Shown here: positions 13,606-57,890 of the stretch, piece after piece
Position numbering within the stretch: the stretch's first letter is position 1
Layout of the letters: every line of letters starts with the position of its first letter
Assembly: GCF_030684315.1 (NCBI RefSeq)
Contig: NC_081371.1
Coordinates: 9,307,441-9,371,440 of the forward strand
Direction: 5' to 3'
From: Stegostoma tigrinum
Taxonomy: Eukaryota
Length of the DNA stretch: 64,000 nt
Position numbers and translations under genes: made by a program
The notes under the pieces: model-generated
What the model saw: the letters and a program-made list of their open reading frames with translations, nothing else
Told to the model about the DNA's origin: nothing
The model's database searches: none

Positions 13606-13640
13606 AGCTGTCGTTTCGGGCCTAGACCCTTCATCAGAGA
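13606..13640 (-). ncRNA. Minimal type I hammerhead ribozyme motif with mutated cleavage triplet (GAC)
   Basis: Minus strand reads CTGATGA-A-GGGT-CTAG-GCCC-GAAA-CG-AC-AGC. Confidence 0.6.
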
Positions 13641-14590
13641 GGGGGATGGGGTGAGGGTTCTGGAATAAATAGGGAGAGAGGGGGAGGCAGACCGAAGATC
13701 AAGAGAAAAGAAGATAGGTGGAGAGGAGAGTATAGGTGGGGAGGTAGAGAGGGGATAGGTCGGTCCAGGGAAGACGGACAGGTCAAGGAGGTGGGATAAG
13801 GTTAGTAGGTAGGAGATGGAGGTGCGGCTTGGGGTGGAAGGAAGGGATGGGTGAGAGGAAGAACAGGTTAGGGAGGCAGAGACAGGTTGGACTGGTTTTG
13901 GGATGCAGTGGGTGGAGGGGAAGAGCTGGGCTGGTTGTGTGGTGTAGTGGGGGGAGGGGACGAACTGGGCTGGTTTAGGGATGCGGTGGGGGAAGGGGAG
14001 ATTTTGAAGCTGATGAAGTCCACATTGATACCATTGGGCTGCAGGGTTCCCAAGCGGAATATGAGTTGCTGTTCCTGCAACCTTCGGGTGGCATCATTGT
14101 GGCACTGCAGGAGGCCCATGATGGACATGTCATCTAAAGAATGGGAGGGGGAGTGGAAATGGCAACTCATATTCCGCTTGGGAACCCTGCAGCCCAATGG
14201 TATCAATGTGGACTTCACTAGCTTCAAAACCTCCCCTTCCCCCACCGCATCCCAAAACCAGCCCAGTTCGTCCCCTCCCCCCACTGCACCACACAACCAG
14301 TCCAGCTCTTCCCCTCCACCCACTGCATCCCAAAACCAGTCCAACCTGTCTGTGCCTTCCTAACCTGTTCTTCCTCTCACCCATCCCTTCCTCCCACCCC
14401 AAGCCGCACCTCCATCTCCTACCTACTAACCTCATCCCACCTCCTTGACCTGTCCACCTTCCCTGGACTGGCCTATCCCCTCCCTACCTCCCCACCTATA
14501 CTGTCCTCTCCACCTATCTTCTTTTCTCTCCATCTTCGGTCCGCCTCCCCCTCTCTCCCTATTTATTCCAGAACTCTCACCCCATCCCCG

Positions 14591-14625
14591 TCTCTGATGA
14601 AGGGTCTAGGCCCGAAACGTCAGCT
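14591..14625 (+). ncRNA. Minimal type I hammerhead ribozyme motif (intact core)
   Basis: CTGATGA (14594-14600), stem II GGGT/GCCC with CTAG loop, GAAA, palindromic ACGT at stem III and a GUC cleavage triplet. This is the layout known for PLE-associated minimal HHRs. Confidence 0.75.
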
Positions 14626-14748
14626 TTTGTGCTCCTGAGATGCTGCTGGGCCTGCTGTGTTCATCCAGCCTCACATTTTATTGACTAGCAAAGTGTTATT
14701 CGGAAGGAGCTATTCGAAGAAGGCCGGATTCAGTTTCATGCTCCAGTC

Positions 14749-14766
14749 TGACCAGCAGGTGGCAGA
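14749..14766 (+). promoter_or_regulatory. CTCF-like motif
   Basis: TGACCAGCAGGTGGCAGA fits the CCASYAGRKGGCRS consensus. Motif match only. Confidence 0.3.
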
Positions 14767-15302
14767 AGCAGCTCGGTCCAGCATCTAGCACATTTAAAGT
14801 TGCTTCAGCATTGTATTGAGACCACTAGCAAGAGTCAGTATTAAGGTAAAGTAAACCTTGATAGCAATACATCAAAGACTAACCTAATTTTCCCTTTTTA
14901 AAAAAAAAATCGTAATTTAAAAACTCAATTCATTTGGTTTCAAACTTAACACAGCTGGTTTATAAAACAAGTTGTTGCATTCAGTAAATGAGGACAAACC
15001 TGACATCATACAACTTTTACACTTGGGTCTGGCAAAATATTTTGAGAGCTTTGTTTTTCTTTATATTTTCCAGGCTTTTGTAAGGGAGGGAGCACCAATC
15101 CCTTTGCTCCCAGCCCCAAACTAAATTTTCTTGCTGTCCTTCATGAAGTGACATCCTAAAGAACCCACCTCTGTGACCAATCCAAGTGACCTATAATGCT
15201 CAATGTCTGCCTTTGCTTTGTAATGTTCCTGTGAAATGCCTTGCAATATTTTGTTTTGCAACATGTTCTATAACACTATAGTTTTATGTGTTAGATGAGT
15301 TA

Positions 15303-15950
15303 GTTGAGTTATAACGAGAGGCTGGATAGGCTGAGATGTTTTGCGCTGGAGCGCAGGAATTTGAGGGGTGTTATTATTGAGGTTTATAAAATCATGAGGG
15401 GCATCGATAAGGTGAATAGCCAAGGTTTCTTTTCCCCCAGGGTATGGGAGTTCATTGCTAGAGGGTGTAGGTTTAAGGTGAGAAGAGGAAGATTTAAATA
15501 AGACATGGGGGCACCTTGTTTTTTAACATGAGTGGTTTGTGGGGAATGCACCTCCAGAAGAAGTGGTGCAGGCAGGTACAGTTAGAATGTCTAAAAGACA
15601 TTTGGATAAGCGCGTGAATAAGAGATATTTGAAGGGCTATGGACCAAACGCAAGAAGGGACAAGTTTAGAGACAATAGATACTGCAGATGCTGCAGAATC
15701 CGAGATAACAAGATGTGGAGCTGCATGAACACAGCAGGCCAAGCAGCATCAGAGGAGCAGGAAAGCTGACGTTTTCTGATGAAGGCTCTAGGCCCGAAAC
15801 ATCAGCTTACCTGCTCCTAAGATGCTGCTTGGCCTGCTGTGTTCATCCGGATCCACACCTTGTTATCAGGGACAAGTTTATTTTGGGATTATCGTTGACA
15901 TATACAGACCCTTCAGTCCACAGTCTCTGTGTGCTGTATTGCCTCTATGA
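15303..15950 (+). mobile_element. CR1-like LINE 3' end, interrupted by an HHR fold-back element
   Basis: LSYNERLDRL..LERRNLRGVIIEVYKIMRGIDKV...; the 3' UTR resumes after 15880. Confidence 0.8.
15669..15867. mobile_element. Non-autonomous PLE-derived fold-back element with central HHR and 13-bp TSD
   Basis: TSD AGGGACAAGTTTA at 15656-15668 and 15868-15880. Arms are about 15704-15774 and 15797-15867. The centre reads CTGATGAAGGCTCTAGGCCCGAAACATC. Confidence 0.85.
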
Positions 15951-17684: not shown

Positions 17685-17700
17685 CCAGGAGATGGCAGCA
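17685..17700 (+). promoter_or_regulatory. CTCF-like motif
   Basis: CCAGGAGATGGCAGCA, one mismatch to the consensus. Motif match only. Confidence 0.25.
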
Positions 17701-18936: not shown

Positions 18937-19408
18937 AGACGGAGAGGGTTCCAGAGAGATTTACCAGGATATTGCTGGAAATGGAGGGTTTGAATTATAC
19001 AGAGAGGGTGGATTGGCTGGGGCTTTGTTCACTGGAGTGTAGGAGGTTGAGGGGTGATGTTATAGAGGTTTGTAAAATCACGAGGGGCATAGATAGTGTG
19101 AATAGCAAAGGTCTTTTCCCTGCGGTGGGGGATTTCAAGACTCGTGGCATATTTTTAAGGTGAGAGGAGAAAACTTTAAAAGCAGTGTGCAATTCTCTTC
19201 CAAACAGAGCAGTCCATGTGTGGAATAAACTTGCAGAGGAAGTGTTGGATGTGAGGATGTTGAAACGACATTTGGATAAGTACATGAATAAGAAATGTTT
19301 TGGAAGGTCGTTGGCCGGATGCAAGTAGGTGGGACTAGATTAGTTTGGGATTATGTTTGACATGGGCTGTTTAGACTGAAGGGTCTGTTTCCGTGCTGAA
19401 TGACTCCA
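18937..19408 (+). mobile_element. CR1-like LINE 3' end
   Basis: ERVPERFTRILLEMEGLNYTERVDWLGLCSLECRRLRGDVIEVCKITRGID, followed by the 3' UTR with GACTGAAGGGTCTGTTTCC. Confidence 0.85.
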
Positions 19409-19419
19409 TATCCTTTCAA

Positions 19420-19690
19420 AGAATGTTAGTGCTGCTGACAAGCTCAACACCAGTCATCCATCCCAGATTTGCTCCAGAACTGAGTGGCTTGCTCGGCCAG
19501 GTTAGAGGGTAGTTAAGAGCCAACCACGTTGCTCTAGGCTTGGAGTCATCCATCGGCTAGACCAAGTATGAATGATGGGCTTCATTCCCTGAAGGACGTT
19601 AATGAACCAAATGGTTTTTGCAGGAATTGACAGTCACCATTATTGAGGATAGCTGTTCAATTGCAAACTTGCTGCTGGGTTTCAAATTCC
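19420..19690 (-). mobile_element. Short SINE-like element sharing the 5' region of the LINE at 46470-48365
   Basis: GAGGGTAGTTAAGAGCCAACCAC..GGAGTCA..TTCCCTGAAGGACGTTAATGAACCAAATGG resembles 48128-48230 and 11160-11250. Confidence 0.55.
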
Positions 19691-20015: not shown

Positions 20016-20200
20016 ATATGGAGATACCCGCGTGGGTCTTGGGTGGACAAAGTCAGAAGCCACACGACACTAGGGTGTAGTCCAACAGGTTTATTTGAAA
20101 GTACAAGCTTTTGGAGCTCTGACAAAGGAGCAGCGCTCTGACAGCTTGTGATTTTAAATAAACCTGTTGGACTACCACCTAGTGTCATGTGACTTCTGAC
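20016..20200. mobile_element. Non-autonomous fold-back element (PLE-derived family 2) with decayed HHR
   Basis: Arms 20052-20110 and 20143-20200 are inverted. The centre CTGACAAAGGAGCAGCGCTCTGACAGC is a decayed CTGANGA-GGAGC/GCTCC-GAAA motif. Confidence 0.7.
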
Positions 20201-20564
20201 AGAAATTGCACCGAGTTGGCTTCTGTGAGGGATTTGTCAAGCGTGACTGTGACAGAATGCTTTCTCAAATTAGAAGCACACTCTTGATGGGCTGAATGGC
20301 CTATCTTTGTTCCTTTGTCGAATGGTCTCCAGTCATTGTAGGTTTAGCACAAATTTAGAAACCACCCTGAGAGATATTGTTTGTACAGCACAATCCAAGC
20401 AAAATAGTTGAATAAAGACAAGAAGCTGGCATGGGAGGAAGCTTTGGATGAGGCCGGCACCATGGAAATAGTGGAAAAGGAGACTAGCAGATTGCCAGGG
20501 ATTTCATTTCCCGAGCTGATGAGGCAGGGCCTCCAGATTTCAGCAGGATCAAAGTTCGGCACAA

Positions 20565-21235: not shown

Positions 21236-22865
21236 CACAGTTGGTAACAGCAGAGTTGGACATTTAGATGTTACCGTTGTCGTGGCAACCATCAACTGTA
21301 TAAGTGCTCCCATTCCCAGTCAAAGTATTAGGAAGTCGGTCATAGCTATAATATAAGGTAGCTGGTCCTAAAGAGTTAACTCTCTAGCTTCTGTAGCTTT
21401 ACCCATATGAGATATATGTGTTGGTCTCTGGGAGGAGTTTGTCATACCTTGTTTTCTGTTGTATTTATTCCAGTCTTCTGTTCTTACCTCCACTGCTAAC
21501 AGCCATGTAACTTAAGTTACCCTAGATACAGTTGTGATTATGATGGGAGGAATGCAGTGATAATCAAGGTCTGTTGCTTCACAAGTCGCGTCATTAATAT
21601 CAATGTTTTGGTTCCATCACTGTAATGACCCACTGTATGGCTATCCAGAATAGAAGAGACTTCCTCCACCCAACTTGGCAGCTAATCGTTTCCACGTTTG
21701 TATGACTATTTTCTCCGTGACATGCTTGACTATACGGACAACGATTCTCTTTAACACAGGCTAGAGAATTCTCTGTTAACCCCACAGTCCACAATGAATC
21801 AGTAACCGTGTGTGTGAGAGTTCCAACATGCTTCTGGCCTGACATCAATAGCAGCATAAGAGAACAGTCAAGACAAAATGAAGATTATTGTGGATATGTG
21901 AGCCATGAAACTTGGAGAGTCCAGGGTTAGTCAGAAGGTCATGGTGAGAAAGAGAACCATGTGCTGGGAACTGTTGCAAAGAGACAAAGTGTATTTGTGT
22001 ATCCGTCGAGGTTTGTAGACTCTGTAGAATGTTTGTTTGAAGGAGGAAATCTGTTGATGAGCATAGGAGAAACCTCCAATCCAAATTCCCCCACCAACCC
22101 AAAGTGTAAGCAGAAAGAAAGTGCAAGTCGCCAGAAAAATGAAAACTTGTTGATATCACAGGATCCACCAGTCGAGTCACGTGAGTTGGGGTCCTTGAGT
22201 CAGTCAAATCAATCATTGTCACACTTGCATTAAATTGAGTTTGTTGCCAAAGTCAAAGTTCAGATTTGACACAGTCAGTGATGTTGAGAGTACAGAGTTA
22301 AGCTAATGGAAATAGAAAGAGATACCCAGACAGAAAGAGAAAGATGCCCGATAGGTTAATTGAGAGTATGTTGGAAGGAAGAATAAAGTGGTTCTTTCCA
22401 TTATTTCTTGTAATAAACGATATTTTTGTTAAAACATATTGGAATTGAGGAAAAATAACATTTTATATGCAAATTATGCTGACATCGTTATTGGTCCTGC
22501 ATGTTTGATTTGTGATACAAACCGAGAAGGCGATCTGTTAAATTTCAGTTTTTGGGGATGTTTGTTGACTTGTACTGTACTTTGAGAGTATAGCATGTGA
22601 GATCTGAGCATTTTGTTCTGCCGCCCTCCCTGATGGTGAGATGTAAATAAAGCAACTTCAATTTCGGTGACCTGCAGTTGAACATGTTTTCATCATACTG
22701 GGTGCAATGTGCAACTGCATCTCTCTTAATTCTCCCATTAAAATTTTCTGGGAGAATAACCCCAGTTTCTCCAATATCAGTCCAATATCCCTGGTACCAT
22801 TTAAAAGAATCTGTGGTAAGCAGTTGATCAGGGAGAAGTGGAACCATTCTTATCGACCCTCTCTC

Positions 22866-23081
22866 GGTCGGAAATCACACGACACCTGGTTACAGTCCAT
22901 CAGGTTTGTTTGAAAGCACAAGCTTTCAGAGCCTCACTACTTCTTCAGGTTCAGGTGACTAACACCTGAAGGGGGAGCGAGGCTCAGAAAGCTTGTGTTT
23001 TCAAAGAAACCTCTTGGACGATAACCCATGGCGTGTGATTTCTGACCTTGTCCATGCCAGTCCAACACCAGCATATCCACG
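22866..23081. mobile_element. Non-autonomous fold-back element (family 2) with two opposed HHR motifs
   Basis: Inverted arms span 22866-23047. The minus strand has CTGAAGAAGTAGTGAGGCTCTGAAAGCTT and the plus strand has CTGAAGGGGGAGCGAGGCTCAGAAAGCTT. An unpaired tail lies at 23048-23081. Confidence 0.75.
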
Positions 23082-27125: not shown

Positions 27126-28070
27126 AAGTCATAGAAACACACAGGAAACAGACCCTTCAATCCAATCAATCCATACTGAACGTAATCCCAAACTAAACTA
27201 GCCCCACCTGCCTGCATCTGGCCCCGTGCCCGTCCAAACCTTTCCTATTCATATTGAGGGAGTGCAGCGTAGGTTCACGAGGTCAATTTCCGGAATGGCA
27301 GGACTATCCTATGTTGAAAGATTGGAGCGACTGGGCTTGTATACACTTGAGTTTAAAAGAATGAGAGGGGATCTGATTGAGACGTATAAGATTGTTAAGG
27401 GATTGGACACTCTGGAGGCAGGAAGCATGTTTCTGCTGATGGGGGAGTCCAGAACCAGAGGACACAGTTTAAAAATAAGGGGTAGGCCATTTAGAACAGA
27501 GTTGAGGAAAAACTTCTTCACCCAGAGAATGGTGGATATATGGAATGCTCTGCCCCAGAAGGCAGTTGAAGGCTAACTCTCTGGATACTTTCAAGAAAGA
27601 GATGGATAGAGGTCTTAAAGATGGTGGAATCAAGGGTTATGGGGATACGGAAGGAACAGGATACTGATTGTGGATGATCAGCCATGATCATAATGAATGG
27701 TGGTGCTGGCTCGAAGGGCCGAATGGCCTACTCCAGCACCCGTTGTCTGTTGTCATATATCCAACGAAATATCTTTAAAATGTTGTAATTGTACCCTCAT
27801 TCACCACTTCCTCGGGAAGTTTGTTCCGCATGTGAACTGTCCTCTGTGTAAAACATTTCCCTCGGGTCTTTTTTAAATCTCTTTCCTCTCACCTTAAAAA
27901 TGTGTCCCCTAGCCTTGAAATGCCCAATCTTAGGGGAAAGGCAACTGCATTAATCCGATCTCTACCTCTCATTATTTTATAAACTTCTAGCAGGTCACCT
28001 CTCACCTTCCTCCTGTCTGGTGGAAAAAGTCCCAGCCTATCCAGCCTTTCCTTAAAACTCAAGTTCTTTG
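27126..28070 (-). mobile_element. CR1-like LINE 3' end, host of a nested CR1
   Basis: Tail at 27126-27254. The element resumes at 27753 with antisense LSFKERLDRLGLF..RRKVRGDLLEVYKIMRGRDR. Confidence 0.8.
27255..27752 (+). mobile_element. Young 5'-truncated CR1-like LINE with 6-bp TSD
   Basis: Open ORF2 C-terminus EGVQRRFTRSISGMAGLSYVERLERLGLYTLE...WNALPQK. TSD TCATAT at 27249-27254 and 27753-27758. Confidence 0.88.
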
Positions 28071-28819: not shown

Positions 28820-29330
28820 CTAGGCAGGATATTATTAGGCTGGAGAGGGCTCATAAGAGTTTTGCCAGGATTTTGCCGGGACCGATTGGTTTGTGTTACA
28901 AGAGCAAGTATGGATTGGCTGGGACCTTTTCACTGGAGGGTAGGAGGTTGAGGGGTGAGCTTAGAGAAGTGTGTAAAAGCACGAGGGGAATTGATATGGT
29001 GAATAGCAAGGGTTTTTATTTTCATAGGGTGGGCGATTTCAAGACTAGAGAGCATAATTGTAAGGTGAGAGGAGAAAGATTTAAAAAGGATGTAGGGCAG
29101 TTTTTATTTTAGTGGTTTGTTTGTTTGTGGAATGAACTTCCAGAGGGAAGTGGTGGATGCTGGTACAGTTACAACATGTAACAGACATTTGGCTAAGTAC
29201 ATGAATAGAAAGGGTTTGGTGGGACATGGGCCGAGGACAGTCTGGTGGGAATAGTTTAGGTTGGGATTGTGGTCACCATGGACTGGTCGGACCGGAGGGT
29301 CTGTTTCTGCACTGGATAACTCTGACTGTA
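28820..29330 (+). mobile_element. CR1-like LINE 3' end
   Basis: RQDIIRLERAHKSFARILPG...FSLEGRRLRGELREVCKSTRGID followed by the 3' UTR. Confidence 0.8.
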
Positions 29331-32672: not shown

Positions 32673-33129
32673 CTCTTACTCATTGTCTGACCCAGGTCCT
32701 CTCATTTGAATAAGAATGCATTTATTCAGTACATTGACACAGTTTGCAACTTGAAACTTTTTCTGTGTGCGTCTGTGTACGTGTTTACAGTGGTGAGACC
32801 CGCACGCTGAACCCCGCACGCTCAACCTTGCGCGCTCTCTCACGCGCTCTCTCACTCACTCTTTCATTATAATACCAGGGTACAAAATTGCAATTGTGAA
32901 ATAAATCAAAGAATAGAGAGAATTGGAAAAAGTGAATGGGACACATCCACCAGGTCTGCAACGCTACATTGAGTGATTATAAGTTTAGAAACAGTTGAAA
33001 AGAGCGCAGCAGACAGATGAAGGTAATTCTGTGGTGGAAAGTAAACAGACGGTATTTTGGGAATGCCAAGATAATAAAATGTGAGGCTGGATGAACACAG
33101 CAGGCCAAGCAGCATCTCAGGAGCACAAA

Positions 33130-33164
33130 AGCTGACGTTTCAGGCCTAGACCCTTCATCAGAGA
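33130..33164 (-). ncRNA. Minimal type I hammerhead ribozyme motif (intact core)
   Basis: Minus strand reads CTGATGA-A-GGGT-CTAG-GCCT-GAAA-CG-TC-AGC in the PLE 3' region. Confidence 0.72.
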
Positions 33165-33303
33165 GGGGGATGGGGAGAGGGAACTGGAATAAATAGGGAG
33201 AGAGGGGGAGGCGGACCGAAGATGGAGAGTAAAGAAGATAGGTGGAGAGAGTGTAGGTGGGGAGGTAGGGAGGGGATAGGTCAGTCCAGGGAAGACGGAC
33301 AGG

Positions 33304-34046
33304 TCAAGGAGGTGGGATGAGGTTAGTAGGTAGCTGGGGGTGCGGCTTGGGGTGGGGGGAAGGGATGGGTGAGAGGAAGAACCGGTCAGGGAGGCAGAGA
33401 CAGGTTGGACTGGTTTTGGGATGCAGTGGGTGGGGGGGAAGAGCTGGGCTGGTTGTGTGGTGCAGTGGGGGGGGGGACGAACTGGGCTGGTTTAGGGATG
33501 CGGTGGGGGGAGGGGAGATTTTGAAACTGGTGAAGTCCACATTGATACCATATGGCTGCAGGGTTCCCAGGCGGAATATGAGTTGCTGTTCCTGCAACCT
33601 TCGGGTGGCATCATTGTGGCACTGCAGGAGGCCCATGATGGACATGTCATCTAGAGAATGGGAGGGGGAGTGGAAATGGTTTGCGACTGGGAGGTGCAGT
33701 TGTTTGTTGCGAACTGAGCGGAGGTGTTCTGCAAAGCGGTCCCCAAGCCTCCGCTTGGTTTCCCCAATGTATTGGAAGCCGCACCGGGTACTTTGGATGC
33801 AGTATACCACATTGGCAGATGTGCAGGTGAACCTCTGCTTAATGTGGAATGTCATCTTGGGGCCTGGGATGGGGGTGAGGGAGGAGGTGTGGGGACAAGT
33901 GTAGCATTTCCTGCGGTTGCAGGGGAAGGTGCCGGGTGTGGTGGGGTTGGAGGGCAGTGTGGAGTGAACAAGGGAGTCACGGAGAGAGTGGTCTCTCCGG
34001 AAAGCTGACAGGGGAGGGGATGGAAAAATGTCTTGGGTGGTGGGGT
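33304..34046 (-). pseudogene. PLE ORF C-terminus: Cys-rich linker and GIY-YIG endonuclease (open frame, no RT, no native start)
   Basis: AFRRDHSLRDSLV..GTFPCNRRKCYTC...TCTSANVVYCI..C..QYIGETKRRLGDRFAEH...VANHF...EQQLIFRLGTLQPYGIN. Confidence 0.88.
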
Positions 34047-34719
34047 CGGGAATGGATGGACTCTCAGAAAAAGGGAGGATCATCTTTTTCACAGAGCTGT
34101 CACACAAAGGCCAGGATGCTTTTAGCCAGCTGGAAGAGGTCTGTGTGATGTGTAAACAGAGGGCAAAGAGCGCAGTCAGCAGCAGTGCCCCTTTTACTTC
34201 AGAATCATTTGATCAAATGAGTACAAAAGTGAATTGGCGAGACAGAGCATCATCCACTAAAGGACTGTAAGAGAGAGAAATAAAGTCTTTATATGTTCAC
34301 AGTTCAGAACAAAGAGAGTTTCACTGCTAAGATTGATTAACTCATGTCTGTGGTGCCATGATCTTGTTATTTAGAGCAACTTTCCCACTTTCCCTTGGCC
34401 TGGCCTGTGAGGCTTAAAATTAGAAATATTTTGAGAGCTTTTTCAGCTCTGTCCAGATATGATTACTTCTATGATTACTTGAGCTTGAGAAGCAGGTGCA
34501 GGATGGGCAAGTTGCTGTAATGTGGCACTGCTGGCCGGTTAACTGTGTCCGCAGATCATGCAGGTGGAAGGAAATGAAATGCTTGTATATTTTTGATAAC
34601 CGAATGTGGGACATGAGCATCATTGGCGAGGCTAACACTTCCGACCCAAACCATTTGTAGTACAAGTTTGATGGAGCAAATGGCTAACTGACTTGCCCTT
34701 GAGAAGAGGCTGCCTTCAG

Positions 34720-34985: not shown

Positions 34986-37936
34986 CATGGAATAGAAGAC
35001 TGTTACTCCCAGGCCAGTTCACTGACCTACTTGTCCTGCACACAGGGTTACCATTGACAAGAAACTGCAGCACTCCATTGGCTCTTGAGTTAGGGTTTAC
35101 TCCTCATTGTTTTGTTGCATGTTTAGATCAAACTGCACACATTGCTTGAACAGATTAGTAAAGTGGAGAGTGAGCATTGTTTTCATGGAAGTTCAGTGCC
35201 TGTGGTCAATGCTGAGTTGGCTGATTGTCAAATCTGCAAGCGGTAACAATAGAGAGAGTGGTTAATTTTGTCCTTCGTGGTGTGGAAGTGTAAGTTGTTT
35301 TTTAAGGATTTTCAGTTGAAGCAGTTCTAAAATGATACACCTGACCCTTGGCCTCTGTCCCCTTTATCCAACGTTTGTCACTCACAACTGCACTTTCCAA
35401 CGACCAACTGTCTTGCCTTTTTCAATCAGGGGCTGTCAGCCTTGTCCACAATAAAACTTCATTGCTTCTTAAACGATGGTCATTCCCCTTCCTCTTTTTC
35501 TGACTGCATCTGTGGGTTAGATGTGGATTGCCAGAGTAAAATGGACCGTGTGGAGTGAACTGGTTCCCTTTGCCAAACCTGTTGCAGACAGATCCCGTTC
35601 AGCAAATGAGATCCACAAGCTTACAGCCATAACTCAACTCCCAAGCTCGGTGCCTGTTAATGAAACAGTGAAGTGTGATTCCAGGATGCTGTACTCCCGT
35701 CAGGGAAGGTAATTGTGGAAAGGGAGAACAAGTCCATGCAAACTGCTTGGCCTCACTTCTCTGGCTCGCTGTCGCAATGAGGCCATTTCCTCAGAGGAAA
35801 CAGCCAAGTAACTGAATGCAATTTAACAGGTTTTCTGTCTGAGATTAGTGCACGTCCTTCAAACACAGACCTGTTAGAAATGGTGCGTACATAGAATCCT
35901 CCAAGGCTGTAATCTTTTCATCTACAGCTACCTGATGTAATGAGCCTTAGTTTGATTTTCACCTCCCACTGATCCTAAAACCTTCCAGACACAATTCTTG
36001 TCCAAACACTTGGATTTCCATTGGTGGACTCTGACCTTTCAGTGCATGGCAGGCCCCTTTAGGCTTTACACCCTCATCCTTGGACAGCACGGTACATGAA
36101 GGCACAGACAGAATGATCACCCACAAAAAGCGTGCCATTGAGCCGACTTGTAAGAAACTTTTCACTGACCTCTGACCGAATTCAACCAAGCAGGACGCCA
36201 AGGCCAGCATTTTTAACCATCCCTAAGTGATATTGTCAGTGCGTGGATTTCCATCTTGAAACGTTTGTCCCCACCTACCACCCTGTATTGCTCACCTTTC
36301 TACCCTCCTGAGCCTCACTCTTTTGACTTCGTTGGAAAGCACTGCCAATGAGAGTCAACTGCTTGAGACTTGGCTGTCACCAGTGTGAGCTGGATTCAAG
36401 CCCTGAGCTTGAGGGAGGACGACGGTGAGCTACCATCTTTCCACCCCCGAATGTTGTCTGACTGAACCGATTTACTCATGTTTCTAAAGATCTGTTGACA
36501 GTAAAACAGCAATATAAGCATTTTGTGCCGCCAGTAACAATGCCACTTGGTAGGATCACTTGTCAAGGATGATGCAGTGGAGAGGACAGTTATTGACCAT
36601 ATAGCTGTTAATTGATTAGCAACCAATCTATATATTGTTTAAACCTTAGTCATGACCCATATCTGAACTTTGAAAACTGATATTGCAGCGATAATTACAG
36701 TGCCACAGATGATCTAATGCATGTCCGTGCATGGTAATTGCAGTCTGTACTGACTGACTGCTTCATATATCCTCCAAGTACATGGTGCTCTGTACGAGTC
36801 AAAAGCGGGATTTGTAGTCATCCTGTTCAAGCACATTTTATGCAAACTTTGATTTTCAAGTGGCAGTATCATCGCTTTTTTTTTATTGCTGTGGAGAGAA
36901 CAAAATGAGATACTGTCACTGTAAAGATGCAAGGTATTTATAAATTGAAACTATCAAAAATTGAATTATCTGGTGATTTATGTTGTTCGAGTTCCTTACA
37001 GTTGTTCAAATGGATGGCATAGAGTGTCCCCAGTGCAAGTACTACAGACTAATCCTCACAGGCTCAAGGCTAACAGCCACAACTGATTCCTGCAGACAGT
37101 AGCTAGCTGAGCCGACGAAACTTTCATGTAAAATACACTGATATACTTACTGCTTCTGGTGTTGCCCTGGGGAAAGATCAATATATTGCTTATCGGCGAC
37201 CAGCTTAACTCTGGATTCTCCCGTGTTGCCTGCCATAGTTATCTTGGAGATGGTTATGTTATACGATGGAAGGCATCCACGTTTCTCAGCTGTTGGTGTT
37301 TCTTTATATTTCTGACTTGGTTGAAGCTTTTGGTCACTTTTCTCTGCTACTCGTTGAGCACGTTAATGGACTGTTCAGCAAGTTAGATTATCATTGCTGA
37401 GCAAATGACCACATCTGCATATGCACTGTAGCAAGGGTGTGGCATTGAGGGTTCAGGATTGTTTCCCTTTGCCAAACTTTAACGTTCTATGGTAACAGCC
37501 TCATTTAGTATCCTCGCGGGAAACATTGTCTGGACATTGATATTGGCACCGCTGTGGTAGCCTGGTATACATGTGGCGGTCAGCCTCATTTGAAGTGAAT
37601 CGGATTAGCTTTGTTATCGTACGAGTACAGTGAAAAGTTTACAAGTCACCATTCACAGTGTCATCTTTTGTGCGAAGGTACCCAGGTACATTTTCTTGAG
37701 TACAAATTCTTAGCGGAAAAATGAATGAAATAGTCCAGCATTACGACCTTGAAAAGTGAGGGATCGTGGTAGTAAATTAGAAAAATTGTGCTGACATCTC
37801 ATTGCCTGGCGCAAAGTATTAAAGACCGAGATAGTGGCGTGGTTCTGTCAGCAGCACTTTCTGATCGAGAAGCTGCTCAATGCGGGAGACAGGAAGATCA
37901 GGCGACAAAGTCTGTGATGGAGCAGGGGATAAAATA

Positions 37937-38037
37937 GAGATAACAGGGAGGAGAGCTGGGTGAACACAGCAGGCCAAGCTGCATCAGAGGAGCAAGAAGG
38001 CTGACATTTCGGGCCGAGACCCTTCTTCAGAAATGAA
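37937..38037 (-). mobile_element. 101-bp non-autonomous PLE-derived HHR element with 10-bp TSD
   Basis: TSD GGATAAAATA at 37927-37936 and 38038-38047. The minus strand begins TTCATTT-CTGAAGAAGGGTCTCGGCCCGAAATGTCAGC. Confidence 0.8.
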
Positions 38038-38529
38038 GGATAAAATAACTTTGTACCCCACGCCATCAAATGGCTGTGGGTTTTGGATCCAGTTCTGGAA
38101 TGTCTGAGGAGGGAGTTGGCAAAGCGGGACCTCTCTATGGTCGTGCGAGGCCGCTGTTATGATTGGAATGTGATCGCGGCTTTTGCTTGCCCCAATGCCA
38201 AATTTGCTTGTGCCTCTCTGATTTTTTTAAACCCGACCTGCCATTGGCTCACTGCTACTGTTGGAGGCGTTTGTGCCTGAATGATGTGCAGAAATAAGGT
38301 GAACAAATAATTAGGAGGGATGGTTTAACAAAGGGAGCAGATGTTGTGCCAGAGCACTGAGATGCGAAGGTACACTAGCCAGAGTTAAAAAGCTAATCTG
38401 GAGCTGGATTCACACTCGGAAGTTATTAAACAGTTCAGCTTGTAGAGGACACCTGGATATTCCTGCCAGTATGTAGAGAGTGTCTGTCATAGTCAAAATG
38501 AAGGAGATTTGAAGTCTCATAATTTCCTG

Positions 38530-39456: not shown

Positions 39457-39699
39457 TAAGAGAAAGAGTGTTGTGCCAGAGCACTGAGATGCGAAGGTAC
39501 ACAAGACAGAGTTAAAAAGCTTATCTAGAGCTGGATTCACGCTCCTTGGAAGTTATTAAATAGTTCAGCCAGTAGTTCAGAAAGGGTGCCGACCCAAAAC
39601 ATCAGCTTGTCTGTTCCCCTGATGCTACCTGGCCTGCTGCGTACTCCAGCTCCACGTTGTGTTATGTCTGACTCCAGCATCGGCAGCTCTTACTATCTC
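39457..39699 (+). mobile_element. Composite insertion: copy of local DNA plus PLE-derived HHR tail, flanked by TSD
   Basis: TCCCATTGGGAT at 39445-39456 and 39698-39709. 39469-39569 copies 38342-38439. 39575-39699 matches the PLE tail (GATGCTACCTGGCCTGCTG...CTCCAGCATCGGCAG..ACTATCTC). Confidence 0.75.
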
Positions 39700-43249: not shown

Positions 43250-43513
43250 CAACTCGACTATCTTCCTCTCATGTAATACCTCATCTCAACATGTGCATGG
43301 GTTAACTCCAAAGTTTTGGAATGGCTCCTCCCAATGATGGTTAAATGACTCTCTCTGAGAGGAGCTAATCAGTTGTAAGTTGGTCACTTTTGTTGGTCAG
43401 TTCTATAACCATGCAGCATAGACCTAGTTATTTTCTGTTTGGAGATTTGAGAAATAGTCTTTCACGTAGTGTTAATGCTGTTAACCAGCCTCCAGCTAAT
43501 ATAATCCTACGTC

Positions 43514-43744
43514 ATAACGGGGTACAAGTTGTATTGCTGGATGAACACAGCAGGCCAAGCAACATCAGAGGAGCAGGAAAGCTGACATTTCAGGCCTGGA
43601 CCCTTCTCCTGAAAACATTTCTGAAGGGTCCAGGCCCGAAATGTCAGCTTTCCTGCTCCTCTGATGCTGCTTGGCCTGCTGTGTTCATCCAGCTCTACAC
43701 CATGTTATCTCAGATTCTCCAGCATCTGCAGTGCCTACTATCTC
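43514..43744. mobile_element. Non-autonomous PLE-derived fold-back element with two opposed decayed HHRs
   Basis: Inverted arms GCTGGATGAACACAGCAGGCCAAGC..GCTGACATTTCAGGCCTGGACCCTTC and GAAGGGTCCAGGCCCGAAATGTCAGC..GTTCATCCAGC. Unpaired tail at 43709-43744. Confidence 0.85.
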
Positions 43745-43749
43745 ATGAT

Positions 43750-44785
43750 GTAGGATTAAATGTGTCTCTCTCTGATCAGTAGTTTGTGACTAATGGGATA
43801 CTGCAAGGAGTCGTGCATGTGCCCCAGCCCTTCACAATATCTATCATTGATTTGGAAGTGGGGTCCAACTGTAAAATTTCCAAAGTTGCCAGTGATTCAA
43901 AGGTAAGTACATATGTGTTGTGAGGAAGATATAGAGCAACTTCAGGACGATTTGGACTGGTTGTGTGAATTGGTAGGAACATGGAAAAACAAAGTTTGCC
44001 ATTTAGGTAGGAGAAACAGATTTGCAGCGTATTTCTGAAATATTAAGCATTTGGAAAGTGTCGAGTCGATCTGCAAAGGGACCTCTGTGTCCTTGTCAAT
44101 AAATTATTCGAAGCTCATATCTGTGTCTTGCAAGCAATTCGGAAGCCCGTTGGAATGTTAGCCTTTAAGATAAAAGGATTTGAGGACAGAAGTGGTGATG
44201 TCTTGCCTCGGTGGTCTTGGAGCTTGTTTGCACATCATCTGGGGTACTGTGTGCAGTTCTGCCCTCCGTATTGTGGAAAATATTACCGCAGAGGGAGTGC
44301 AATGAGGACTCACCAGACTTGTTCCCAGGATAGTGCAACTGACCTTTCAACAAACTTGGGGCAAACTGCATCTGTTTCACTCGAGTTTCAAAAATTGTGG
44401 TCTGACCTCATTGAACCCGACAAAACACTTAAGGGTTAGACAGGGTGGACGTGGGTAGGTTGTTTCCCTGGTTCAGGGAGTCAAGGGTAAGGAGGCACAG
44501 TTTAGAATTCAGAGGAATACCAGTGAGGTCTGAGATGAGGAGAAATAGTTTTACTCACAGGGTTATGAACCTTTGGAATTCTTTCCCGCGAGGCCTGTCG
44601 AAGCTCAGTAATGGAGTATATTTAAGGTAGAGATTGATTGATAGATTTCTGACTACCAGTAGAGTGCAGGGTTATGGGAATGTGGTGAATAAAAGGCAGG
44701 GATGTCTTTGATCAGCCACGGTTGTATAAAATGGCACAGGAGGAGCAATGGGCTGAATGACCTATTCCTAGTCCGACATTCTTGT
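43750..44785 (+). mobile_element. CR1-like LINE, RT to 3' end, degraded
   Basis: Decayed VT-G--QGSV / FTI-I-DL / ISK-A-D-K / HLGYCVQFCP / RRNSFTHRVMNLWNSFP series and a 3' UTR with GGGCTGAATGACCTATTCC. Confidence 0.8.
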
Positions 44786-45819: not shown

Positions 45820-46452
45820 AGTCACCCTACTGTACATCAGAGATGACCACAAGACTACTCAGACCCCTAGGTACTAGGTTGCCCACAAATCTCAGAACCA
45901 CCCTGCGACAGCTACTGATGAGTGTAAAGGATCCCGTACCCATAACCAATAAAACTAACGTGACATACAAAATACCATGCAAGCACTGTAAGAAACACTG
46001 GATAGACCAAACTGGAAGAAAACTGACAATAGGGATACGCGAACACCAACTAGCCACTAAGAGACACAACTACACTCACTGGTCTCAATACACATGGATA
46101 AAGGACACGAATTCAACTGGGCCAACACACCCATAACAGCACGAGCCAAACAGAGACGTGCCAGGGAATTCCTGGAGGCCTGACATTCCAACTGGAACTC
46201 CGTTAACAAGCATGTTGAACTGGACCCGACATACAAACCACTGAGAAACAGAACTGGAAGTGATGCTCACCATCCCAGAAAACCAAGGCATATAAATAAC
46301 GCGCGGGACAGAACACCAGCGCTTCACCAGGGGCGCACTGATGATGTTACCTAGCGGGGTGATGAAACATCTGCAACCAAACATGCCAGCTCGCTGACCA
46401 AGTCGACAGCCTCATCCACATCCCGAAATACAATTCTTCTCAAAAACTTTAA
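45820..46452 (+). mobile_element. Penelope-like element (second lineage), GIY-YIG and 3' end, frameshifted
   Basis: SEMTTRLLRPLG...TLRQLLMSVKDPVP..KTNVTYKIPCKHCKKHWIDQTGRKL..IREHQLA, followed by a decayed REFLEA-HS..VNK motif. Confidence 0.82.
46335..46374 (+). ncRNA. Minimal type I hammerhead ribozyme motif in PLE 3' region
   Basis: GCA-CTGATGA-T-GTTACC-TAGCGG-GGTGAT-GAAA-C-ATC-TGC. Stem I is GCA/TGC and stem II is GTTACC/GGTGAT. Confidence 0.7.
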
Positions 46453-50890: not shown

Positions 50891-50892
<2 letters not shown>

Positions 50893-50898
50893 CTCCCT

Positions 50899-53173: not shown

Positions 53174-53328
53174 TTAGATTAGATTAGATTAGATTCCCTA
53201 CAGTGTGGAAACAGGCCCTTCGGCCCAACAGGTCCACGCCGCCCGTTGGAGCATCGCACCCAGACCCATCCCCCTATAACCCACACAACCCTGAACACTA
53301 CGGGCAATTTAGCATGGCCAATCCCCCT
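53174..53328 (-). mobile_element. HE1-like SINE 3' half with (TCTAA)n tail
   Basis: (TTAGA)4-TTCCCTACAGTGTGGAAACAGGCCCTTCGGCCC...GGGCAATTTAGCATGGCCAATC. Confidence 0.85.
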
Positions 53329-54559
53329 TGCCATCGGCAGGAATAGCCCCTCTGCTCACACGACGTTACAAAGGTGCTGCTAACAATTTTCTTTGACTGG
53401 TATTTCTAACTTTCAAAAAAACAACAGATGCCAAGGTTATGATTTTTCTGCAGACATGTTTGACTAAGTGGCCTGCTGAGTTCCCAAGTATGTCTTTATT
53501 GTCAAGAACTGGACTTTTCTTTGACAGTTGGAATCTTCAACAGGGAGGGAACAAAGTGTAATAAGTGGCATTCCCCTTTTACAAAGAGAATAGGAAAAAG
53601 GAATACTTGTATTTTCTTGACTTAGCAATGAGGTTGACCTCAAAAATATACGTTCTGTAGATTCTCGAGAGAAATTGGTGATTTTGTGCAGAAGAGAATT
53701 TTGGCTTCTCAACACTGTATAGGGCCATTGCAAGACACATCGCAAGAAAACTAGACATCGACCTGTCAAGACTATGTCTGATTAGAAATACGCCTGGAAA
53801 GAAATATCAGCAACATCTTGAAAAAATGGTGTACGCCAAACAACAAAACACTTGTCATGGGCTCAGCTACCCTACTCGGACATCTCCAATGACCAACCTC
53901 ATCCTTTCTTTACAAGTTGGTGCAGACTTGATGGGCCAAAGTGCCTATTGTGCACTCTGAATCCCATTGAAATACCCCTGTGATTCTCACTGGTCTGGAG
54001 TTGTCTGTGAAATATGTTGCCTCTTTAGGTTAAGCTAGAAACTTTGCTTTCTGGCACTTGAAGAAAACATATTTTGGCTCTAACAATCTCGCTCCAAAAT
54101 TCCTGAAGAATTTATCACGAGCTGCGATACTATTTTGAACCTCATTTAGTTTGACTGTGGTCAACGCTGTTGACGCTGGTACTGGTCTGACATTCTGGGC
54201 CTTATGTGCTCACCTCCCATCACGACAAAGTTTGAAAAGCAAATTTAATACATTTGGGTCGGTAATGGAAGTGGCAGGTTTAGGTCCTTGACTGGATGTT
54301 AATTGTGGAGGGTAGGAAGATCAACCACAGACATTCTGACTATCCTTGCACCTGATCAAGTATCTCTTGTGCTGTAATAGTGCAATCGAATTCAAATCTT
54401 TAGGCAAGCCCTGATGGTAACATGTTTTGAGCTAGCTGGACTTGTAATCGCCGTAAGGTGGATTGGTCACCATTATCCCCTGCTGGGTAGGGATTAACAA
54501 GGCCCGCCCTGTCTACTGTAGAAAAGCGAAACCTGTAATGCCAAGCGGTCCTGTTGTTG

Positions 54560-54975
54560 CCAGTCCTGGAGGGTTCGAGTCATAAGGTGAGGCTGGAGAA
54601 GCTGGGACTTTTTTGACAGGAGTGTAAGAGGTTGAGGGGTGAACTTATTGAGGTTTATGAAATCATGAGGGGCCATAAACACAGTGAAAAGCAAAGGTCA
54701 TTTTTCCCGTGGGGTGGGGGAGTTCAAAAAAAGGTCATATTTTTAAGGTGGTGAGGAGCAAGGCACCTGAGACACAGTGTTTTCACAGAGAGGGTGGTTC
54801 ATAGGTGCAATGGATGCAGGTACAGTTAGAACATGGAAAAGGTATTTGGACATGAACAGGGAAGATCGAGAGTGATTTGGGCCAAATGCAGGCAAACGGG
54901 GCTAGTTTAGTTGGCATGGACAAGTTGGACCGGAGGGTCTGTTTCAGTGCGATTTGACTCAATGACACTGTGATC
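54560..54975 (+). mobile_element. CR1-like LINE 3' end
   Basis: GAGGTTGAGGGGTGAACTTATTGAGGTTTATGAAATCATGAGGGG...GGACCGGAGGGTCTGTTTC. Confidence 0.8.
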
Positions 54976-55289
54976 ATTTGTTAGCACCAGGAATTAAATG
55001 ATGGTCACCTTTTGGAAATCTCTGACTGCCTTCTTGCTAACAGTGCTATTGAGCTGCTTACAGTATACAGACAGCAGCTGCACAAGAATTGAGCTCCTTG
55101 CCACCTACCAGTCAGCCTTGCCAGCAGCCCCCATACCTCGAGAGTTATTTTCAAAAGGGAAGGAACTCTGAAGTGGCCCAAGAACTGAGAAATGAGCAGA
55201 ATATATTGTCCTGCCAGTGCCCCCATGTGTCAACAACAAAATGTGCTTCAGACTTTGAAATTGATCTTGGAATAAGGTGTGTTGGTTTT

Positions 55290-55600
55290 CCAGATGGTGA
55301 AATTGGTGGTATTTTTTGTGGCTCTGTGACTCAGCGAACATGCTGAAGACCATGAGTTCAAAATGCCACTGTGTCACATTGTGGAATCAAATTCAATGTA
55401 GCAATGCATTAATGAGGAGTGAAGGGTCACGATAGCTACAGATTATAGCAGTCGGAACATTTATACCATGGATGGGAACCCAGTCGAATCTTAATCTAAT
55501 CTGTCTCACATGTGACTCCAGTCTGAGATGATGTGGTTTATCTGTAGCACCATTGACCAATAAAGGATGGACAATTGTGAAATGACTGTATTCCTACCAG
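55290..55600 (+). mobile_element. Degraded SINE-like element, same family as 19420-19690
   Basis: CATGAGTTCAAAATGCC (B-box-like), AAATTCAAT, ACATGTGACTCCAG..ATGTGGTT, AAGGATGGACAAT. Confidence 0.45.
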
Positions 55601-56889
55601 TGCTTCTCAAACCACAGGAGTAAGTCCCAAGAGCCTAAGGCTAAGGTAGTGTATTTGTGGTATTGGCAGTTTGGGTAAAGATTTCATTTCAGATGAGCCC
55701 AGCTCTGAAAGATGAACTATGCCCGGATTGCTCACATAGTGCTGTCTGTTTGGCAAAATGGGACTTTGTGTTTGTGAGGCATTTGACTATGTGGCAGAGA
55801 TTTTGCTATACTTTATTGCCCCTGGGTGTGTCCAATGCAGTGCATTGTGATAATGTACTATAACATCTCTGTTATTGTGAGGCTTCATTGTAGATGCTAT
55901 GAACGTAAGGTTAGCACATAAGTGCACATGGTAAACCGTTGCTGTCTTGCAGAATCAGCAATGAAAGTTAACACTTGAACCTGTTGCGCTGTTTCCGGAT
56001 GTTACAGGTGCCGGCGTTTGGATAATGCAACAAAGTTCCCTCAAGGTGACTGCGCATTCCATCTGGAATTCTCACAGCTGAATCTGCTTGTTCATCAGCA
56101 ATTACATGAGTTCTCCTGCAGGGCTACATGTGACCTGAGGCTTTCACAAGCCGATCTGCTCCGTGGGAGATGGGCTGGCCTACACCGTGCCTTCCGATGC
56201 AGGTAGCAGAGCGATAGCTAATTGGAAAGGGTGTGGGTTCTTCAAATGTGTACAAAGCAGGCAAACAAGATGCTGGAGCTGTTTTGCCACGCTGTACTGT
56301 GGCACAGTTCAGCTGCCGTGCCCCGCACTTGATAATGTTAACTTATTTCAAAGGGGGAAAGGTATATTGCCATTTTGCTGACAGGTATTTTAATATCCGG
56401 GTGAAATATTGAAGAAGAAAATCCATGAAGTGAGAGAGTCTTTTTTTCTTCTTATTAAACAGTCTGCTAAAAGCAACCGGGTGGGAAATTAAACACTTGT
56501 AATTCTTGATAAGTCAGTGAAGAGACAGAGAGACAGGCTGATCTTATACATGGCTGAATATGCAATTAATCTGCAATGGTGTTGGAATAATATTTTCTGG
56601 TCAGGGCAAATACTTCACAGCCTGTGGGCACAGTGGAACAAAGTGCCATTATATCTTTGAACATCAGTCTTTGACACCAGATGCATCAGTAAAGCAGAAT
56701 CGGTTTAGTTTGCTATTCATGCTGCTCTCCAGCAATTGCAAATGGTGGACCCTTTTATGTCGCAGATTTTCTGTCATCCAGCAAGCAACATCTCCTCCTC
56801 CCCACTATTACTATTACACCGGACCACCGTCACAACATCATCCATTTCAGACTTTCCGACATTTGTTCACTGAAGAATTTCATGGCATT

Positions 56890-57600
56890 CTTGTTTAAAA
56901 ATAATATCCTTCTTCTGTCTTCCGGGGCAACGTCCCAAAGTCTCTCAACCCGCTGACAAGAAAACACAGTTAAGCTTATCTCTGTCCCAACAAAATGACT
57001 ACTAACTCTTAGGTAATATTCCTGAGTTCAAATCCTGCAACTTTGTATTTCCTGTTCAGGATCACATGCACTTGAATCGAGTTCCCTTGCGCTCTTCTAA
57101 ACTCCAGTTGAAACAAGCCTAGCTTGTCCAATCTTTCGTCACAAGACAACCCACTCGTGCCAAGCATCCATCTGGTAAAAGCGTCCTCCGAACCACCTCC
57201 AGTGCTTTTACTTCCTTCTTTAAATAGCGAGACCAAAACTGCATTGAGGTGCACTGTACAACTGAAGAGTAACAGTCGGGATAAAACATAATGTTCTATT
57301 TGCCTCCTTCATGACTTGCTGTACGTGTATATGAGCTTTTACAGATTCATCCACAGGAACATTTACATGCCTCTACATCTCAGAGTTCTGCAGTCATTCT
57401 CCTCTTAAACAATATTTTTTTTATAAATTCTTCCCGTCAAAGTTCACAACTTCTCGTTTTTCCCACATTATGCTCTATCTGCCAGACGTTTGGTCGCTGA
57501 CTCAAAGTGGCAATTTTAGTCTGCGACCTCATGTTTGCCTCTTCACAACATTATTTTCCTTTTTATTTTGTCATCTCCAATTCTAACCATTATGCCTTCA
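56890..57600 (-). mobile_element. CR1-like LINE ORF2 fragment, degraded
   Basis: Antisense FTRWMLGTSGLSCDERLDKLGLFQLEFRRAQG. Confidence 0.75.
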
Positions 57601-57761
57601 CTCCGCCTGAAATAGCTTGACTGCAGTCGGTATCCTGTCACCGAGTCACCCTTTATTAACATGTGAACAGTTCTCGACAATTCTACTGCCTCGTACAGAC
57701 CCTTGAAGATCCCTATTTACCACATCCTGCCAATCAGGTAAAAGTCTATCTATGCATAAAA

Positions 57762-57890
57762 ATAAAACATAGAACTGAGGATGCTGTAGATCCGAAAAGA
57801 AAACAGAAAATGCTGGAGAAACTCAGGTCTGGCAGCATCTGTGGAGAGAGAAACAAAGTTAACGTTTCGGGTCCAGTGACCTTTCTTCAG
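57762..57890 (-). mobile_element. Short PLE-derived element (family 3) beginning with an HHR motif
   Basis: Minus strand reads CTGAAGA-AA-GGTC-ACTG-GACC-C-GAAA-CG-TT-AAC, then CTCTCCACAGATGCTGCCAGACCTGAG..CTCCAGCATTTTCTG, related to the PLE tail. A truncated relative lies at about 7950-8015. Confidence 0.72.

Follow-up and report, generated by a model that had tools for sequence, protein, structure and literature searches.

Minimal type I hammerhead ribozymes (min-HHRs) have been described in the Penelope-like elements (PLEs) of metazoans (Cervera and De la Pena 2014, PMC4209133). According to that account, they have a bulged base before stem II, a G10.1-C11.1 pair, a loop-less palindromic 15.2-16.2, and a short stem I, fall into several families per genome, and occur mostly as single motifs ascribed to truncated PLEs and as opposite-strand pairs (100-700 bp apart in that report), all of which recurs in the shark DNA described below. 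Cleavage of PLE hammerheads was weak in vitro, and the portions of the paper considered here contain neither 5′-end mapping of short copies nor in vivo cleavage evidence. EN+ PLEs with inverted terminal repeats (pLTRs) and a 30-40-bp tail (PMC8557442, PMC3846280) share with the present elements 5′ truncation, partial tandems, target-site duplications (TSDs), an inverted copy at the 5′ end, and a tail on one side only. In the same papers, a TATA box and an Inr-like word were proposed for an Adineta pLTR, a CX2-5CxxC linker before the endonuclease was given as the mark of Neptune, and the function of PLE HHRs was termed unclear; the sections considered describe no one-base 5′ pile-up or extra G, unlike what is reported here.

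For the PAc Poseidon element of Anolis, an in vitro study (PMC11167929) reported that reverse transcription (RT) begins at two internal sites, about 115 nt below the HHR, that both strands are cut and extended, and that the HHR is protein-assisted, features that have counterparts here. As far as the consulted part of that study goes, no RNA reads began or ended at the cut site and the RNA start was unmapped, two points on which our junction counts bear. Non-LTR retrozymes (bioRxiv 10.64898/2026.07.22.740005; see also PMC7229834) are likewise non-coding, HHR-bearing, and derived from PLE terminal repeats, and have been reported in one chondrichthyan (bioRxiv 10.64898/2026.07.22.740005).

The window analysed here is a stretch of 64,000 nucleotides from Stegostoma tigrinum. 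Each of the roughly 13 hammerhead motifs of the original prediction is present (13/13), and its plus-strand coordinates are correct; for the minus strand it gave the low end of each motif, whereas the C of CUGA, from which positions are counted throughout, lies about 30 nt higher, at 13637, 22948, 33161, 38030, 43611, and 57890. In all families, the architecture is that of a minimal type I hammerhead, consisting of CUGANGA, a bulged base, stem II, GAAA, and a 4-nt palindrome. At least four stem II families had been proposed and four were found, namely A (GGGT/GCCC), A′ (GGGTC/GACCC), C (GGAGC/GCTCC), and D (GTTACC/GGTGAC). Decay was said to affect some motifs, but intactness is in fact the minority state (2/13): as judged by eye, core, stem II, and ACGU palindrome are all kept only at 14594(+) and 33161(-), while the palindrome is broken at 13637, 15776, 38030, and 46338, the core at 20119, 22966, 39575, 43611, and 43621, and stem II at 22948 and 57890.

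A strict descriptor, which required CTGANGA and GAAA to be exact, allowed 0-1 bulged base, and asked for at least 3 bp in stem II, gave five matches in the window versus 0-1 (mean 0.33) in six Markov controls, and only one motif was recovered when the bulged base was disallowed. A descriptor search of 830 kb of unselected genome returned 64 motifs with the bulge and G10.1 versus 0-1 in three controls. Extrapolation from this sample gives an estimate of about 250,000 intact cores genome-wide, which bears out the very high copy number anticipated and compares with roughly 4,000 for coelacanth and 9,000 for Xenopus (PMC4209133). An Rfam search of the window at the gathering score yielded no match. 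The palindrome 15.1-16.1 and the following H17 read ACGU-C in 89 of 146 family A motifs, most of the others being explained by CpG decay, ACGU-U in A′, AGCU-U in C, and ACGU-C in D. Stem I, which was no part of the descriptor, differs compensatorily in its first pair between families (U-A in A and A′, C-G in C and, by eye, A-U in D). It is 4 bp long in A′ and C, pairing as far as -4 and not -5 (pair 4 in 73% and pair 5 in 14% of A′, n=44; 100% and 29% of C, n=7). In family A it has only 2 bp (pair 3 paired in 5%) and stem II has 4 bp, a combination unlike the min-HHRs covered in the consulted part of PMC4209133. RNAfold, applied to monomers and homodimers from -4, gave alternative folds and no hammerhead fold for family A motifs, and is therefore uninformative on the active fold. 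With the bulged base and G10.1-C11.1 in place, the motifs of the window are the published min-HHRs of PLEs, and the prediction of PLE-type minimal hammerheads in several families was right.

A large head-to-head fold-back of family A PLE 3′ ends lies at 13511..14683, with a tailed left arm (-), a tail-less right arm (+), an endonuclease C-terminus, and a 15-bp TSD (13496-13510 and 14684-14698). It contains, as had been noted, two motifs, one at 13606..13641 (-) with its core from 13637 and a mutated palindrome, and the intact one at 14590..14625 (+) with its core from 14594 and a predicted cut between 14621 and 14622. Four short fold-backs are also present. In the short family A fold-back at 15669..15867, the left arm (-) starts at about +21 and is tailed, the right arm (+) starts at about -3 and is tail-less, the decayed HHR lies at 15776, and the TSD is 13 bp (15656-15668 and 15868-15880). 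The older family A fold-back at 43524..43744 has a tail-less left arm (-) from about -3 with a broken core at 43611, and a tailed right arm (+) from about -5 whose core at 43621 bears a 3-nt deletion. Family C contributes two short fold-backs with approximate outer ends, 20016..20203, with a broken core in its HHR at 20119(+), and 22864..23080, with decayed HHRs at 22948(-) and 22966(+). Single stubs include an older family A copy at 37937..38035 (-), which starts at -5/-4, has no tail, carries a core at 38030 with a decayed palindrome, and is flanked by a 10-bp TSD (37927-37936 and 38038-38047), a decayed tailed family A copy at 39575..39697 (+) with a broken core, and a tailed family A′ copy at 57773..57892 (-) whose HHR core at 57890 has a mutated G10.1. 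The expectation that some elements have their own TSDs was thus correct for three short or fold-back elements (15, 13, and 10 bp).

Two motifs had also been placed in the 3′ region of GIY-YIG-encoding PLEs. This stands for 33161, which belongs to a 5′-truncated young family A PLE at 33063..34049 (-) comprising a Zn-linker and GIY-YIG coding region (Pfam PF01541, E 0.002, under the curated cut-off) and, on its 3′ side, a pyrimidine-rich region with a TATA-like box, the intact HHR (33130..33165, -, core from 33161, G-U closing pair), and a tail-less end. For 46338 it holds by eye only: the motif (46334..46375, +), with an intact core, a long stem II, and a decayed palindrome, lies downstream of a broken frame with a GIY-YIG-like stretch, for which a Pfam search found no match, in a decayed family D PLE 3′ end (45900..46445, +, 5′ end approximate) that we infer to be Poseidon-like.

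With regard to the parent elements, a long family A copy at a sampled locus (L129) matched RVT_1 (E 2e-5) and GIY-YIG (E 0.004), both under the curated cut-off; an 895-aa ORF beside it was rejected as a PLE part, being by eye a CR1-type LINE. The family A translation shows a CX2-5CxxC linker before the endonuclease, a candidate Neptune mark. A′ copies follow a related endonuclease (tblastn), the family D endonuclease was recognised by eye only, and no RT/GIY-YIG ORF or autonomous partner was found beside family C copies in the sample. As in EN+ PLEs, the terminal repeats are direct or inverted, with an optional tail. In complete elements, HHR and tail continue into the ORF of the PLE; at three loci (L267-L269), the order is upstream region, HHR, tail, and ORF, and at L264/L266 an ORF-bearing copy has its 5′ end at the HHR edge. 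In long copies of A and A′, an initiator-like site is preceded, at a distance of about 30 nt, by a TATA-like word.

The starts of the copies were mapped in an unselected sample of 122 x 10 kb, in which 266 family A arms were placed, the other 12 of 278 being left out because they were unaligned or lay at the edge of a stretch (of 100 stretches specified for the sample, 17 proved nonexistent and were dropped). Sixty arms start at -7..-1, with a peak at -4, only two at -35..-8, 84 further upstream, and 120 inside the unit; five start at -36 and are probably alignment ends in old copies. Family A′ behaves similarly (31/90 at -7..-1, 5 at -35..-8), while family D has no pile-up (1/24 at -7..-1). 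Simulated uniform truncation produced no comparable pile-up at -7..-1, and genome-wide exact junction counts with matched flanks in the young family gave 7,013 starts at -4 versus 67 at -10. The -4 base is the last base of stem I in A′ and C, and it lies about 30 nt below the TATA-like box, on the initiator-like motif. The base before it, at -5, is G in 83 of the first-listed 100 of the 7,013 starts, in 45 of 62 of these when the 38 inverted-arm rows are removed (p 3e-10 versus one third), and in 9 of 12 in the unselected sample. Inspection of 30 loci that start at -4 showed the G to be an unambiguous single untemplated base at only about two of them; elsewhere it lies within the target duplication, longer added stretches, or the inverted arm. 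In full-length L1 insertions, an extra 5′ G is reported to mark cap copying (PMC11702581). The pile-up is best interpreted, at the level of sequence, as run-off of reverse transcriptase at the capped 5′ end of PLE RNA, the -4 base being the likely capped start. A 3′ splice site was rejected as the boundary, with only 1 of 266 arms starting near a CAG at about -20 and no common upstream exon in the inspected junction loci, and so was a type III topology cutting at -8, for which neither stem forms. In our literature search, the one-base pile-up, the extra G, and shark min-HHR families were undescribed; supplements of PMC4209133 and of the bioRxiv retrozyme paper may list shark families.

It could instead be supposed that the enzyme stalls on a longer RNA, either at the folded or protein-bound foot of the hammerhead or at a C-rich tract, and that a second set of starts, at the predicted cut (+28), reflects microhomology of the palindrome. 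That the boundary falls where stem I ends in A′ and C, that the PAc protein assists hammerhead folding (PMC11167929), and that local hot spots such as +35 occur would fit, but a stall leaves the G at -5 and the TATA-like word at a fitting distance unexplained, and a polymerase that has passed an unwound ribozyme should not halt at its far end; we regard it as unlikely. The second peak comprises 3,008 starts in genome-wide exact counts, versus 187-1,616 at four control sites. Other 4-nt palindromes have few junctions (ACGT 317, GGCC 187), which argues against microhomology. The peak is only 1.9-fold over +35, a local hot spot in its own right, so that this control weakens the +28 peak rather than testing it. 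It is partly confounded by the palindrome: 64 of the first-listed 100 +28 starts are perfect palindromes on AGCT. In an older subfamily without the AGCT palindrome, a small, about twofold excess persists, which the stall reading can also accommodate; of 92 rows assigned to one of seven positions in a hand count of first-listed rows, 22 fall at +28 (p 0.009), 8 of 100 having been set aside for deletions or a repeated segment. This weaker pile-up may mark the self-cut of the ribozyme.

At their 3′ side, copies end at about +92 (tail-less) or at the tail (+120 to +127), and in 48 of 51 head-to-head pairs a tailed arm is joined to a tail-less one, the pattern predicted by two internal start sites (PMC11167929). 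The original prediction was right in ascribing the short copies to the PLE enzyme, and also took them for a separate non-autonomous class. A self-propagating, SINE-like class, whose 125-nt unit would have an internal promoter, be transcribed from its own copies, and rely on the PLE enzyme in trans for its mobility, would account for the fixed 5′ end combined with very high number (180 of 266 family A arms lack the upstream region), and for a short:long ratio that varies from subfamily to subfamily (four linked sites; lowest p 0.0005 among 72 tests). There are also precedents in the internal promoter of D. virilis Penelope (PMC2377424) and in non-autonomous pLTR-like elements (PMC8557442; bioRxiv 10.64898/2026.07.22.740005), and family C has no autonomous partner in the sample. 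Against it, all 12 diagnostic subfamily words occur in both short and long family A arms, no variant reaching at least 10% in 171 short arms was absent from the 84 long ones (72 tests; family A only), the starts of 120 of the 180 short arms are scattered over the interior of the unit, and stubs, starting 4 nt before the core, lack half of the initiator as well as the TATA-like word upstream. Such a class is accordingly held to be quite improbable: common sequence and variants, the two PLE 3′ ends, and the lack of private variants identify the short ribozyme-bearing repeats, on present sequence evidence, as truncation products, pieces of PLEs and not a separate mobile family. The claim of a new mobile-element class is not supported, a verdict that does not extend to family C, which lacks an autonomous partner in the sample. 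The further claim that the elements are unlike tandem retrozymes holds for the window, whose elements are single or head-to-head, without head-to-tail HHR units and without the upstream region kept by arrays, but not for the genome, where retrozyme-type tandem arrays of 308-581-bp units from the same PLE occur (L076, L270, L271). That the short elements arose by reverse transcription of retrozyme monomers, cleaved or circularised, is very improbable, for although there are a peak at the predicted cut, 2 of 30 inspected +28 loci joining ORF-start sequence to +28, and tandem arrays in the genome, the main boundary lies 32 nt upstream of the cut with the whole core kept, only 7 of 266 unselected arms start at +26..+28, and stubs are no circular permutations and end at ordinary PLE 3′ ends, so that cleavage as the main source is contradicted and would survive only for the +28 minority.

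The reading we prefer, to which we assign a probability of roughly 0.75, is that the stubs are dead-end PLE copies produced when reverse transcription starts at two internal sites and runs off the capped 5′ end at -4. The upstream terminal repeat would act as a TATA/initiator promoter, with the transcript beginning at hammerhead stem I; the PLE enzyme would initiate within the RNA, at one of two sites that lie some 90 and 120 nt below the hammerhead, and then run off the likely capped end 4 nt before the catalytic core. Both DNA strands would be nicked and primed, and joining of the two cDNA ends would yield the fold-backs with 10-15-bp TSDs. Devoid of the TATA-like box, stubs would remain untranscribed as masters, and would themselves be templated by complete PLE transcripts, by 3′ ends that bear a promoter, or by retrozyme arrays; the subfamily-dependent short:long ratio speaks against a single kind of master unless age or loss differ. 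Stubs might keep some promoter activity, given that the D. virilis Penelope promoter is internal and TATA-less. Less securely, some RNAs may be cut at GUC by a dimeric, probably protein-assisted ribozyme, and run-off at that end, at about even odds, gave rise to the +28 peak.

If the junction peaks are RNA ends, they would place the ribozyme at the transcript cap, tell 5′ RACE and cleavage assays exactly which positions to target, and explain the 125-nt stubs as the majority of PLE copies in such genomes; repeat libraries could list PLE stubs as separate short families. A fuller picture, which unites a capped stem I base and self-decapping with strong-stop-like cDNA and germ-line cleavage, is offered tentatively and falls somewhat short of an even chance. 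Were it true, the ribozyme would occupy the extreme 5′ end and could free its RNA of the cap by cleaving off 32 nt, internal priming at the 5′ terminal-repeat copy would yield a strong-stop-like cDNA integrated hundreds of thousands of times, and the thousands of junctions at the predicted cut would show a minimal hammerhead with a 2-bp stem I cleaving in the vertebrate germ line. The genome would then preserve the PLE life cycle as a fossil record at base resolution.

All 13 of the hammerhead ribozyme (HHR) motifs originally predicted were found in the window, and the motif is a conserved RNA structure. In the fitting descriptor, a single unpaired base separates CUGANGA from stem II, and GAAA is followed only by C-G-U-H or G-C-U-H, so that stem III is a loopless 4-nt palindrome (ACGU or AGCU). 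With exact cores and a stem II no shorter than 3 bp, the window contained 5 matches, whereas 6 Markov controls averaged 0.33; only the motifs at 14594(+) and 33161(-) are intact throughout. Sixty-four motifs with exact cores, the bulge, and G10.1 were detected in 83 unselected 10-kb stretches, compared with 0-1 in three controls. Four families, named by stem II, were counted as arms (single copies of a Penelope-like element (PLE) end) in 122 stretches (1.22 Mb): A (GGGT/GCCC) 278, A' (GGGTC/GACCC) 101, C (GGAGC/GCTCC) 17, and D (GTTACC/GGTGAC) 24. For the 3.2-Gb vertebrate assembly, these extrapolate, on large scaffolds only, to ~730,000, ~265,000, ~45,000, and ~63,000, respectively.

Stem I and the palindrome lie outside the descriptor used to find the motifs. 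In families A and A', stem I opens with a U-A pair, in C with C-G, and in D, by eye, with A-U; the palindrome changes from ACGU to AGCU in family C. Family A has a stem I of 2 bp, against 4 bp in A' and C. Decay of the motif is for the most part loss of CpG. In family A, G to A at +29 (counted from the C of CUGA) disrupts the second stem I pair in 19 of 129 short and 2 of 84 long arms, an excess (p 0.004) that is not significant after 72 tests. The window motifs are the minimal type I HHRs of PMC4209133, which gives helix I of the Drosophila virilis form as 2 bp, ascribes lone motifs to truncated PLEs, and already reports opposite-strand pairs and several families per genome.

The carriers of the motifs are PLE ends. 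The element at 33063..34049(-) encodes a GIY-YIG domain and has at least 39 further genomic copies at 98-99% identity, and another stretch, L129, carries reverse transcriptase, a CX4CxxC linker, and GIY-YIG, and after these HHR and tail. In three partial tandems (L267-L269), upstream region, HHR, and tail are continuous into the ORF start, while at L264/L266 an ORF-bearing copy starts at the HHR edge and is preceded by an inverted arm ending at -4. Copies of A' lie downstream of a related endonuclease (31-58% identity), and no adjoining endonuclease was found for family C copies within the sample. A 27-codon in-frame upstream ORF also lies inside the HHR-tail segment of L264 (1890-2010), stopping just before the main ORF start.

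Arms end 3' either near +92 or in a tail near +120 to +127, and 48 of 51 head-to-head pairs combine one end of each type. This pairing matches the two internal reverse transcription start sites and two-strand priming described for PAc Poseidon (PMC11167929), as well as the inverted PLE terminal repeat with a one-sided tail reported in PMC8557442 and PMC3846280. The fold-back at 43524-43744 lacks a direct TSD and is instead bordered by a 14-bp duplication in inverted orientation (43503-43516 and 43745-43758, 13/14 matching).

With regard to the short copies, the original prediction proposed a distinct class of PLE-mobilised ribozyme mini-elements. Short and long arms alike contain all 12 diagnostic words, and across 72 site tests every variant at ≥10% in 171 short arms was also present in the 84 long ones. 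The short copies thus follow the autonomous lineages, and "stubs" describes them best; the new class is not upheld for A and A' and may still hold for family C. The window elements are additional members of an already known kind of element. Long arms carry the youngest variant more often than short ones (best p 0.0005 in 72 site tests), which counts against one single kind of source.

Among 266 placed family A arms, 84 reach above -35, 2 begin at -35..-8, 60 at -7..-1, and 120 are scattered inside. Simulated uniform truncation gave 12 called for 13 true starts, and 16 for 10, at -7..-1, and so the start caller does not create the pile-up. In A', 31 of 90 starts fall at -7..-1 against 5 at -35..-8; family C (5/17) perhaps shares the pile-up, and family D has none (1 of 24 starts). 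Exact genome-wide counts, with a code of three non-matching and 26 matching bases, were 7,013 at -4 versus 67 at -10, both positions following CCC in the element. In A' and C, stem I extends no further than -4. A TATA-like word precedes -4 by ~30 nt in long copies, and an initiator-like or TCT-like word lies at -4 itself. Among the first 100 matches listed, G stood at -5 in 83, and in 45 of 62 after rows explained by an inverted arm were dropped. A clean single added G was seen in only ~2 of 30 examined -4 loci, and at the others the G belonged to a TSD, to an inverted arm, or to a stretch of added bases; the extra-G sign is therefore statistical. In L1, such an extra G signals cap copying (PMC11702581).

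At +28, the predicted cut site, starts did not form a distinct peak in the unselected sample, with 7 arms at +26..+28. Genome-wide start counts were 3,008 at +28, 317 at +23, 456 at +30, 1,616 at +35, and 187 at +55, the last made with a narrower code. Perfect palindromes on AGCT occurred at +28 in 64 of the first 100 matches listed, as two annealed cDNAs ending at +28 would give; for ACGT and GGCC palindromes, such junctions made up only about one quarter of far fewer rows. In an older subfamily reading AGCC, counted by hand on 100 of 391 rows, 92 rows could be classified over seven positions, of which 22 fell at +28 (p 0.009), 19 at +30, and 18 at +24. The count at +35 is also high. Cleavage in vivo has about even odds. 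ORF-start sequence is joined to +28 at 2 of 30 loci (L227, L228) and, at L004, straight to -4 of another copy, a pattern that template jumping off RNA ends would produce.

Elsewhere in the genome, the same PLE has given rise by internal deletion to true tandem retrozymes. These arrays consist of family A PLE copies with internal deletions, arranged head to tail in units of ~308-581 bp; they retain the upstream region and the HHR as well as the tail and ORF start, and include L076 7300-8440, L270, and L271 (units ~446, 581, and 351 bp, respectively), as well as G000:C13:85440599, C13:78478298, C10:74196653, and C15:42037413. Periods of 308 and 322 bp are also listed; the former, at three places, would fit a mobile retrozyme family. 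At G000:C2:58043056-58044748, nine copies of a family A arm starting at +23, spaced 208 bp apart, form a minisatellite without the HHR core.

Some other features were also observed. Two abundant dispersed repeat families, at 8100-8336, 10517-10832, 15271-15630, 18957-19300, 28858-29217, 54542-54874, and 63124-63330 and at 4766-4934, 9241-9388, 27136-27252, and 62895-63042, probably represent the 3' ends of LINEs and a short repeat associated with them. A weak Pfam match (E 0.006, short of the cut-off) to a NOMO1-like beta-sandwich at 384-935(-) is perhaps a host exon. L129 (7259-9946) holds an open 895-aa CR1-type frame, suggesting a young LINE family, and 10-kb segments nearly identical to one another lie on four contigs (L119, L122-L124).

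End positions, arm pairing, shared variants, and ORF continuity are direct observations, beside which the following scheme may be set. Transcription of a capped RNA would begin at stem I, driven by a promoter within the upstream terminal repeat, and the enzyme would prime internally at +92 or +122. Priming in the downstream repeat would produce long, randomly truncated copies, and priming in the repeat at the RNA 5' end would produce stubs, with run-off at -4; both target strands would be primed and the cDNA ends then joined, and part of the RNAs may be cut at +28. The junction statistics, of which no description was found in the literature searched, make the role of PLE hammerheads directly testable.
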